This document shows positions 1-3,000 of a stretch of 64,000 nucleotides of DNA, one piece after another. The DNA comes from Escherichia coli. Lineage in GTDB: Bacteria > Pseudomonadota > Gammaproteobacteria > Enterobacterales > Enterobacteriaceae. Each line of letters opens with the position of its first letter. Within the stretch, counting starts at the first letter, position 1. The stretch lies in NCBI RefSeq assembly GCF_013315695.1, contig NZ_CP054353.1; one strand, written 5' to 3'. The position numbers were made by a program.

Positions 1-3000
1 CGTCCAGTTTTCCTTTGCCGTATGCGCTGTCATGATCCAGGTTGACGTGCGAGTGGGTCACATCGAACGCCAGCGCGCCAAACTGTGCGAGGTCGCGCCC
101 CACCCCCATCGCCGCCGACTGGTAGTGTTCATCTGCCAGCGCGCCACCGTAGAGCGACCAGCCATCTGCCACCCCCCATGACGCTTCTCCACCGGAGAAA
201 AAGCCGCCTTCGGTCCTGTGGTTCCAGTCTTCCGGACGCCCCATCATCACTTTGTAACGCACCTGCCCCTGGCGCGTGAGGAATGGCATAGATGCGGTGG
301 TAACGTCATATTCCTGCACCTGACCATTCTGTTCTTCAACGCGGACGTGCAGTGTGCCGGAGACGGAGTCGCCGATATCCTGAATGCGGAATGGCCCGGC
401 GGGAACCTGGGTTTCGTAAAGTACCCGACCCATCTGGCTAATGGTGACTTTTGCACTGCTGTGCGCCACGCCGGAGACATCCGGCGCATAGCCGCGCAGG
501 TTGGGCGGCAGCATCTGGTCATCGGTGCTGACGCTGCTGCCAATATAGTTAAAGCCGTCGAAAATATCGGAGTTGAGATAATCTTCACCCAGCGACAGCT
601 TGGCTTTTAAAGAGGGTAAGGCCCGCCAGGCGTAATAACGGCTCCAGTCCCAGTTTTTGCTCGTTGTACTGTTACTGCTGTCATCGTCTTCGTCGTCGTT
701 GCTGCGGGTGTGCTGATAATCACTTTGCCAGTCTGCGCGGAAACGCCATGCCCCCAGGTTCGCCCCAACGGTACCGTTGCCGCTGATATCATGTGAGTCC
801 TCGCCACCCTGCTCCTGATGACGAGTTTGCGCATTGAGGCTGTAGTCGGCAATCAGGCCAGGAATACCGTCGTCCCAGCGTGAGGGTGGGTCCCAGTCGC
901 TGCTGGTATATTCGAGGTAAGCCTGTGGCACTGTCAGCAGCAACGCCGACTGGCTTAAATCATTCTCGACTTCCATCCCATCTAATTGCCCCGGTTTAAG
1001 GCATTCATCGTTGTGCGTCCACTGCAGGCTTTTTGCTATCCCTTCTTTCAGCCCCAGCGCCGCCACTAACTCAGGTGTCAGGCAGGCATACGTTTTTGTT
1101 GGATCATTTTCAGAGACGTACCAGTTAATGTCGTATTCATCAGAAAGGGGGTGTTTATTTATAAATACACGTAAATTATATTTACCCGCGTCGACATACC
1201 CTTTTTTTGAAAACTTACCGAGATCAATTTTCGTGTCACCCTTTAACTCAAGAAAACGGGGGTCAAATTGAATGGAATCATCAGCCCATGCATTGACTGA
1301 TCCACCAGAGATTGCCAGCGCAATATAGCAGGCGATTCCCCGCAGCCGAAAATTTGAGTGATTAAGCATACACATATCCGTTTGTGAAACAGTCGTAAAT
1401 CCGTTGCGCGTTGAAAAACCCCACAGCAGAACGCTGTGGGGTTGTCACATCAGAGATAGGTAATCTGGAATGTGGTCAGGGTTTCGAACTGGCCGAGATC
1501 CGGCGCTTCGGTTTCACCCACCAGCCAGGCTTTAAAGTTCAGCGTTTGCTTGTCTTTACCTTTGCTGGTTGAAGCATCCATCACGATTGGCTGAACAATC
1601 TTTTCGCCCACTTTATAACCTTTGCCATGGGTATCGCCGATCACCAGGCTCACATTCTTCATGGCAACACCGCTGTCAACGTTGAATAACGCATAGTTAT
1701 CTGTGTTGGCTGGCCCCGCGTAGTTAGTACCGGTGAACGTGGTCTCCATGTTTGTTTCAGTGGAAAACACGCAGTCCTGTAAACGGATCTGGAAATCTTT
1801 CGGTGTGGTGGTGCCACCGCCGGTCAGTTTAGCCGCACCGATGTCACCCATATCGACTTCCAGTTTGTGATCGTCTGGAACGATAGAGCACGGGGAGTCT
1901 TCAATGGTGCCGTAGAAGCGCGCGGTACCGTTGTTGCCTGCTGCAAATGCAGAACTGGAAACAACTGCGCCCATGACCATCGCCGCAGCAATGGCTGTTT
2001 TGGCAAACTTACTCATTATTTGTCCTTAAATCATTAAGAGTTATAATATAAACACCTGACATAAAATTAATATATATTATGCCCGATATTTATAGTTAGC
2101 CATTGAACATATACACTCCAATATAATCATAGAATGTAAACAAGTATTCTCTGGTGTGTCTGTATGTTGGTCTTATCTATAAAAAAACTCAATTTAGTAA
2201 TACTTAAACACTTTATGTAGATTTTATTAATTAATACATCTACAAAATACTTTCACCACTTTCCAACAAAAAAACATGCGAATTATCAACAAAAAAACAA
2301 ACTATTATAATCAACAAAAATGAATTGCTTATAAAGCACACTAAAAAAAATTATAATAACCTTACCATCATTTATTGCTAAAATTTAATATTAATTAAAT
2401 CAATAAATATATATTCAAGATACAAAACCATTATCTTCTTTATTTTATTACGGGATTCAATAATGGGAAAATATAATAACTATCGAGAGTTGTTAAATAT
2501 TAACAACATTTAGACAAGAAAAAGAATGATTGTATGACGGAGAAACTGCCCGGTGTACGCGCACGTAACCGGGCATTGATTGCTTAAATTGCTTTTGCCA
2601 TCTTCAAATTACAAGGGCTCATTTGCCAGTTGAATTGGCCTTTTCCGCTTTCATCAAGCGTTACGCTGGCAATCGCTGACGTGGTAAACATAGGCGGCGT
2701 TTCGCCCGGACATAACTCGGCAACCAGATACCCGACTAAGGGTAAGTGGGAGATCACCAGTACCGAAGCAACACCTTCATTGGTCAACGCCTGCAAATAG
2801 GCACTGACCAGACCAACATCGCCGCAGGGTGTTAACTCCGGCAGAACTTCTGCACTGGAAGGCAGGTTCAGACAATCCCCTACTTCTTCCAGTGTTTGCT
2901 CGGCTCGCAGGAACGGGCTCACCAGAACGCGTTCGATTTCCACTTTTTGACCTTTCAGCCAGTTCGCCATCAGGCGAGATTCGTCACAACCGTTAGTAGT

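Follow-up and report, generated by a model that had tools for sequence, protein, structure and literature searches.

Is the Yfc chaperone-usher fimbria of this Escherichia coli strain equipped with an intact usher? The question arises at the very edge of the DNA analysed here, a 64,000-nucleotide stretch of contig NZ_CP054353.1 (assembly GCF_013315695.1; hereafter the window), in which the orthologue of yfcU, the usher gene of the yfc operon, is represented by its 5' part (positions 1-1369, minus strand), recognised by its open translation, Pfam matches and a match to record NZ_LR898874.1. The first-pass annotation had described this gene as open from its ATG to the window edge and, by contrast with the K-12 counterpart, a pseudogene, had proposed that the strain may carry a functional Yfc fimbria. 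The analyses presented below indicate, with a probability of about 90%, that 1-1369(-) is the 5' part of an intact, wild-type Yfc usher gene, that the K-12 stop codon falls outside the window, and that the allele is one associated with extraintestinal pathogenic E. coli (ExPEC). The usher gene in the window is an ordinary, wild-type and widespread gene, and as such already known.

The usher reading frame and the K-12 lesion

Computational translation of the minus strand from position 1369 yielded 456 sense codons (codons 1-456 plus one nucleotide), with no stop and no frameshift in 1-1369, which bears out the reported open frame. The ATG (1369-1367) opens a protein beginning with MLNHSNFRLRG; the NCBI Prokaryotic Genome Annotation Pipeline (PGAP) calls the same start in NZ_LR898874.1, a near-identical record, and the start of K-12 yfcU aligns with it. 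The N-terminus (MLNHSNFRLRGIACYIALAISGGSVNAWA), read by eye from the sequence, resembles a Sec signal peptide. Pfam searches with the fragment returned PapC_N (PF13954; E = 2.4e-36, residues 34-180) and positions 3-240 of the 549 positions of the Usher profile (E = 2.7e-98); the part in view comprises the putative signal peptide, PapC_N and approximately the first half of the barrel. That the frame might be a chance or mis-framed reading was rejected, since 456 stop-free codons are expected with a probability of about 2e-9 (given the base composition of the region itself), and both the Pfam matches and the identical PGAP annotation in the relatives speak for a genuine gene. The window holds the 5' 52% of this gene, and the 3' 48% lies beyond its edge.

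The K-12 gene (b4661, formerly split as yfcT/yfcU) is indeed flagged as a pseudogene, as the first-pass annotation had stated. Alignment to it located a single lesion: K-12 yfcU has exactly one internal stop and no frameshift, the stop being a TAG at K-12 codon 579, opposite codon 580 (TAC, Tyr; gene nt 1738-1740) of the usher studied here. This position corresponds to window coordinate -368, i.e. 369 nt past the edge, and the first 456 codons of K-12 yfcU contain no stop either. Because the lesion lies beyond the edge and K-12 is open over the same part, the visible open frame does not discriminate between an intact gene and the state found in K-12, and the argument drawn from the K-12 contrast fails. 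More generally, when the lesion known from the reference lies beyond the edge of a window, an open reading frame (ORF) truncated by that edge gives no warrant for calling the gene intact. Judging from the PapC barrel match (residues 158-676) and the C-terminal-domain match (residues 759-845), translation ending at codon 579 would yield a usher that lacks the final portion of the barrel and the two C-terminal domains.

The full-length usher in closely related genomes

The state of the 3' half (usher nt 1370-2652) was taken from the five closest complete genomes, namely MSB1_4I (NZ_LR898874.1), AF3, MS 21-1, AF14 and AF10, which are 99.8-100% identical to window positions 1-3200. MSB1_4I matches this first 3.2 kb at 3199 of 3200 positions, and the window usher (1-1369) is identical to nt 1-1369 of its intact usher. 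All five genomes carry an intact 2652-nt usher gene without indels, in which codon 580 is TAC and not the TAG of K-12; seven variable sites were found among them in all 2652 nt, two of these in nt 1370-2652. The coding sequence of MSB1_4I (2652 nt; WP_021562956.1) translates into 883 amino acids (aa) with one terminal stop and contains PapC_N, positions 3-549 of 549 of the Usher profile and PapC_C (PF13953; E = 9.2e-14, residues 772-826), with the structures of the PapC C-terminal domain (3l48 and 2kt6) matching residues 759-845. Public assemblies contain the identical 883-aa protein in 528 indexed blocks. Since the five closest relatives are all intact and free of indels, the 3' half is expected to be intact in the genome of the window as well, and this comparative evidence makes both an intact usher and a complete operon probable for the strain.

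Distribution of the K-12 stop codon

Of 5426 complete genomes, 363 contain an exact match to a 61-mer centred on the K-12 TAG. The five TAG carriers sampled are all laboratory K-12 derivatives (ER1709, a K-12 strain, MC1061, a K-12-derived mouse coloniser and a 'laboratory developed' strain), one of them with the PGAP note 'internal stop', while the wild phylogroup-A strains NCTC86 and D9 (one mismatch to the 61-mer) have TAC and an intact 881-aa YfcU. Clusters of full-length proteins comprise 12,700 members for the K-12-like YfcU and 3733 for the present allele. The K-12 change from TAC to TAG therefore appears, from the sequences compared, to be confined to the K-12 laboratory lineage. Yfc has been described as core-associated, the yfc cluster alone being intact in all of 36 genomes (Wurpel et al. 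2013; PMC3559732). Given the frequency of the TAG, the TAC of wild relatives and this literature, an intact usher is the norm and K-12 the exception. K-12 was thus the wrong yardstick for the first-pass annotation, the more so as the locus belongs to an allele class only about 75% identical to that of K-12; pseudogene annotations of K-12 are a poor guide to wild strains when, as for yfcU, the lesion is a single stop apparently of laboratory origin. For discovery, the intact usher carries little weight, as the intactness of Yfc is already known from the literature (PMC3559732).

Allele class and the uropathogenic E. coli marker

The usher (in its full length) shares 74.7% nucleotide and 76.8% amino acid identity with K-12 yfcU, from which it differs by two in-frame 3-nt indels. 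A megablast search with the full usher placed about 1223 of the 5426 genomes in its allele class (at least 90% identity), including ATCC 25922, strain O18, an avian pathogenic E. coli (APEC) O2:K1:H4 strain and SaT040 of sequence type (ST) 131; the five uninterrupted members sampled were all annotated as intact. The primers published for yfcV as a marker of uropathogenic E. coli (UPEC), whose sequences (Spurbeck et al. 2012) are confirmed in PMC11984961, match the window exactly at 1732-1751(-) and 1460-1480(+), defining a 292-bp amplicon (1460-1751). Within the K-12 locus, where only the forward primer was searched, this primer had no match within 3 mismatches. A high diversity of yfc genes (PMC4850163) and divergent clusters at the sixA site (PMC3032704) have been described previously. 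By sequence, the locus is a member of the ExPEC-associated allele class with a yfcV of the UPEC-marker type, and the strain can be described as carrying an ExPEC-associated Yfc allele, positive for the yfcV marker and with a probably complete operon.

In strain O18 (NZ_CP007275.1, L007 1-41), which has an intact usher, the annotation gives the upstream yfcV as an incomplete pseudogene without its C-terminus, so that genes of the yfc operon other than the usher can carry lesions too.

Within the clone, codon 73 of the usher (window 1150-1152, gene nt 217-219) is variable: it encodes His (CAC) in the window and in MSB1_4I, Pro (CCC) in AF3, AF14 and AF10, where it extends a C-run to 7, and Gln (CAA) in MS 21-1, as it does in the aligned members of the allele class. 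Two adjacent variable sites, of only seven in the 2652 nt of the five near-identical genomes, thus fall in this one codon beside the C-run, an outcome expected by chance in roughly 1-2% of cases (a rough estimate). Selection acting on the docking of chaperone-subunit complexes, or a mutational hotspot at this spot, could account for the pattern in place of neutral drift or assembly error; that the N-terminal domain of the usher is changing adaptively in this clone would nevertheless seem quite improbable.

Could the usher be disrupted beyond the window edge?

Several observations weigh against reading the gene as intact. The window stops at usher codon 456, so that 427 codons and the other five genes of the operon lie beyond its edge, and the genomes used as proxies are not identical to it. 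MSB1_4I differs from the window by one single-nucleotide polymorphism (SNP) in the first 12.2 kb (position 2358, A vs G) and by about 30 further SNPs, and GCA_900448625.1, which encodes the exact usher protein, also differs at 2358. MSB1_4I moreover carries a 1.4-kb insertion sequence (IS), the IS110-like ISEc45, upstream of glk, which the window lacks (at approximately 46437-46448); the two are therefore different isolates of the same clone. The tRNA cluster at 59760-60035 consists of two tRNA-Val(tac) genes plus tRNA-Lys, and MSB1_4I is annotated with three tRNA-Val, a difference that amounts to a copy-number change in a tandem tRNA array. Finally, IS1 is abundant in the clone, with 38-40 matching places in each relative, and it splits the usher in 3 of the 31 members sampled from the allele class.

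A nonsense mutation, a frameshift or an IS in the unseen 48% of the gene would leave the strain Yfc-defective despite its open 5' half, and the activity of IS1 in the clone, with a copy in the window itself (9599-10296) and another upstream of yfcV in AF3, as well as the IS1-split ushers of the class, lends some plausibility to such an event. Against it stand the five closest relatives, all intact, without indels and with two variable sites in the unseen part, the exact intact protein in hundreds of assembly blocks (528, as given above), and the intact annotation of every uninterrupted class member sampled. Taken together, these make a disrupted usher highly improbable, and the intact, wild-type usher is retained as the preferred reading.

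Organisation of the yfc operon

The operon has the order yfcV-usher-yfcS-yfcR-yfcQ-yfcP-yfcO and is located between sixA and smrB, as in K-12; sixA, yfcV and the usher are seen in the window and the rest in the relatives. The major fimbrial subunit gene yfcV (1450-2016, minus strand; 188 aa) was recognised by its Pfam Fimbrial domain and PGAP annotation (WP_000032634.1). The chromosomal site of the locus is marked by the conserved flanking gene sixA (2584-3069, minus strand), which has the Pfam domain His_Phos_1 and is annotated as sixA in all relatives and K-12. In MSB1_4I, all seven operon genes are annotated as intact and have the expected domains; in the four other relatives, the check extended over yfcV, the usher and yfcS. 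Downstream (3') of the MSB1_4I usher are genes for a PapD-type chaperone, three minor subunits with Fimbrial domains and a DUF2544 (StfH/YfcO-family) protein, none of them flagged as a pseudogene. The chaperone of the relatives (250 aa; PapD_N and PapD_C) is encoded 19 nt downstream of the usher.

A lesion in yfcP was considered, given a PGAP product of 157 aa that leaves no room for a signal peptide, and was rejected: a 175-aa ORF starts at an ATG at position 5953 of the MSB1_4I sequence L001 and has a signal peptide and a K-12-like ATGA overlap with yfcQ, the short product being due to a late start call.

Between yfcV and the usher lies a gap of 80 nt, which contains a GC-rich hairpin followed by a run of five U (1414-1443, minus strand), terminator- or attenuator-like in form. 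RNA folding gave 11 bp, -21.8 kcal/mol and z = -3.83. In the equivalent K-12 hairpin the pairing is kept through a change in both arms (ACAG/CUGU vs AUAG/CUAU). Despite the folded hairpin, a consensus terminator scan reported no terminator between yfcV and the usher. The position of the hairpin after the major-subunit gene and the organisation of other chaperone-usher operons suggest that it may be an attenuator setting the ratio of major subunit to assembly-gene expression.

Is the operon expressed?

The intergenic region between sixA and yfcV (2017-2583; 567 bp) is presumed to hold the promoter and regulatory sequences of the operon. It is AT-rich (25.7% GC vs 48.2% for the whole window) and contains promoter-like sites on the minus strand at 2496-2468, 2469-2442 and 2381-2353. 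AT-rich upstream regions of this kind are typical of fimbrial promoters silenced by H-NS. No GATC site is present in 2017-2583, and Pap-style Dam/Lrp phase switching is therefore not indicated. The single difference between the window and MSB1_4I in the first 12.2 kb (2358) falls in this region. In AF3, an IS1A is inserted between sixA and yfcV (L013 4843-5540, equivalent to window 2017-2583), which could alter expression of the yfc operon in that strain.

The low GC content of the yfcV upstream region and the description of yad, yeh and yfc as 'functional but cryptic' (Wurpel et al.; PMC3559732) also count against a fully functional fimbria, and they fit an operon that is intact and transcriptionally silent under most conditions. 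The 5.2 log2-fold rise of yfcV in CFT073 upon overproduction of the regulator TosR (PMC5956150) points in the same direction. On the other side, yfcV marks efficient colonisers of the urinary tract (Spurbeck 2012, as cited in PMC11984961), a correlative hint at use in vivo. We regard the case for such silence as evenly balanced. It is compatible with an intact usher and qualifies only the last step, from gene to fimbria, where 'functional Yfc fimbria' would denote coding potential only. The proposal that the strain may carry a functional Yfc fimbria accordingly survives in part: an intact usher and operon are supported by proxy from the five relatives, and the open frame, on which the proposal had been built, is not diagnostic.

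Other features of the region

In the close relatives, a two-gene Septu anti-phage system, absent from K-12, lies between smrB and yfcO. It was detected at L001 2531-4532 of NZ_LR898874.1, outside the window and at a distance of about 4.5-6.5 kb from its position 1, and consists of PtuA (452 aa; PADLOC E = 4e-168) and PtuB (219 aa; E = 4.5e-95). In GCA_900448625.1 (L017), PtuB is called as two ORFs (156 and 63 aa) and may be disrupted there.

Within the window, a hypothetical gene located between fadL and mlaA is interrupted by an IS1A (approximately 9599-10296), its fragments lying at 9270-9542 and 10311-11294. This IS1A is missing from MS 21-1, AF14 and AF10, which are more distant relatives and cover only 96% of window 1-20000. 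The aminopeptidase gene ypdE (41503-42540, minus strand) has an in-frame stop near codon 323 (between ...ILQMQ and LLSAL...), for which PGAP gives 'internal stop' in MSB1_4I. The D-serine utilisation locus dsdC-dsdX-dsdA (window approximately 13701-17537) is annotated as intact in the near-identical relative; D-serine utilisation (dsd) is often linked to extraintestinal E. coli.

Comparison with known chaperone-usher systems

The best solved relative of the full-length MSB1_4I usher is PapC of P pili (PDB 7lhg, 2vqi, 3fip and 3l48). The match to 7lhg_C scores 704 bits and spans residues 34-845, i.e. the N-terminal domain, barrel and C-terminal domain, whereas full-length FimD-type ushers score approximately 275-279 bits. 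This PapC match supports both the pi-clade assignment, which agrees with the literature (PMC3032704), and the usher mechanism. PapC serves a different fimbria encoded at a different locus; the Yfc usher has a 38-residue C-terminal tail, rich in Pro, Thr, Ser and Gln, beyond the PapC match, and the putative Yfc tip protein is a DUF2544 (StfH/YfcO-family) protein, whereas the tip of the P pilus is PapG.

In PapC and FimD ushers, chaperone-subunit complexes dock at the N-terminal domain, subunits are joined by donor-strand exchange, and the fibre passes out through the barrel after displacement of the plug. By analogy, subunits exported by Sec would be bound in the periplasm by the chaperone YfcS, which would pass them to the N-terminal domain of the Yfc usher, where they would be polymerised by donor-strand exchange and threaded through the beta-barrel, while the C-terminal domains of the usher would hold the growing fibre. 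In this scheme YfcV would form the shaft, YfcR, YfcQ and YfcP would be minor subunits, and YfcO would be the tip; no feature of the sequence speaks against it.

Among the yfc loci themselves, that of K-12 occupies the same site (sixA-smrB) and has the same gene order, usher start and domain architecture, with a usher gene of 2646 nt (vs 2652 nt here). It differs by the TAG at codon 579, where the allele here and wild K-12-like alleles have TAC, and its YfcV shares 69% amino acid identity with the YfcV of the window. Much closer is the ExPEC/UPEC-type Yfc (e.g. ATCC 25922, O18 and ST131 SaT040), in which yfcV is a UPEC marker for the polymerase chain reaction, the sampled ushers are intact and the usher is 95-99% (nucleotide) and 98-99% (amino acid) identical to that of the clone. 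The usher of the clone is distinguished from these by one extra codon in an acidic stretch (DDEDDD vs DD-DDD; 883 vs 882 aa) and by His at residue 73, which is Gln in most ExPEC/UPEC-type ushers. A third class at the same site is represented by ECs3222-ECs3216 of O157:H7 and the 'epo/eso' cluster of E. coli W, described as a pi-type cluster of seven genes at the sixA site (PMC3032704). The O157:H7 ushers are about 77% identical at the nucleotide level to the usher described here and hence form a separate allele class, which is also present in other genomes.
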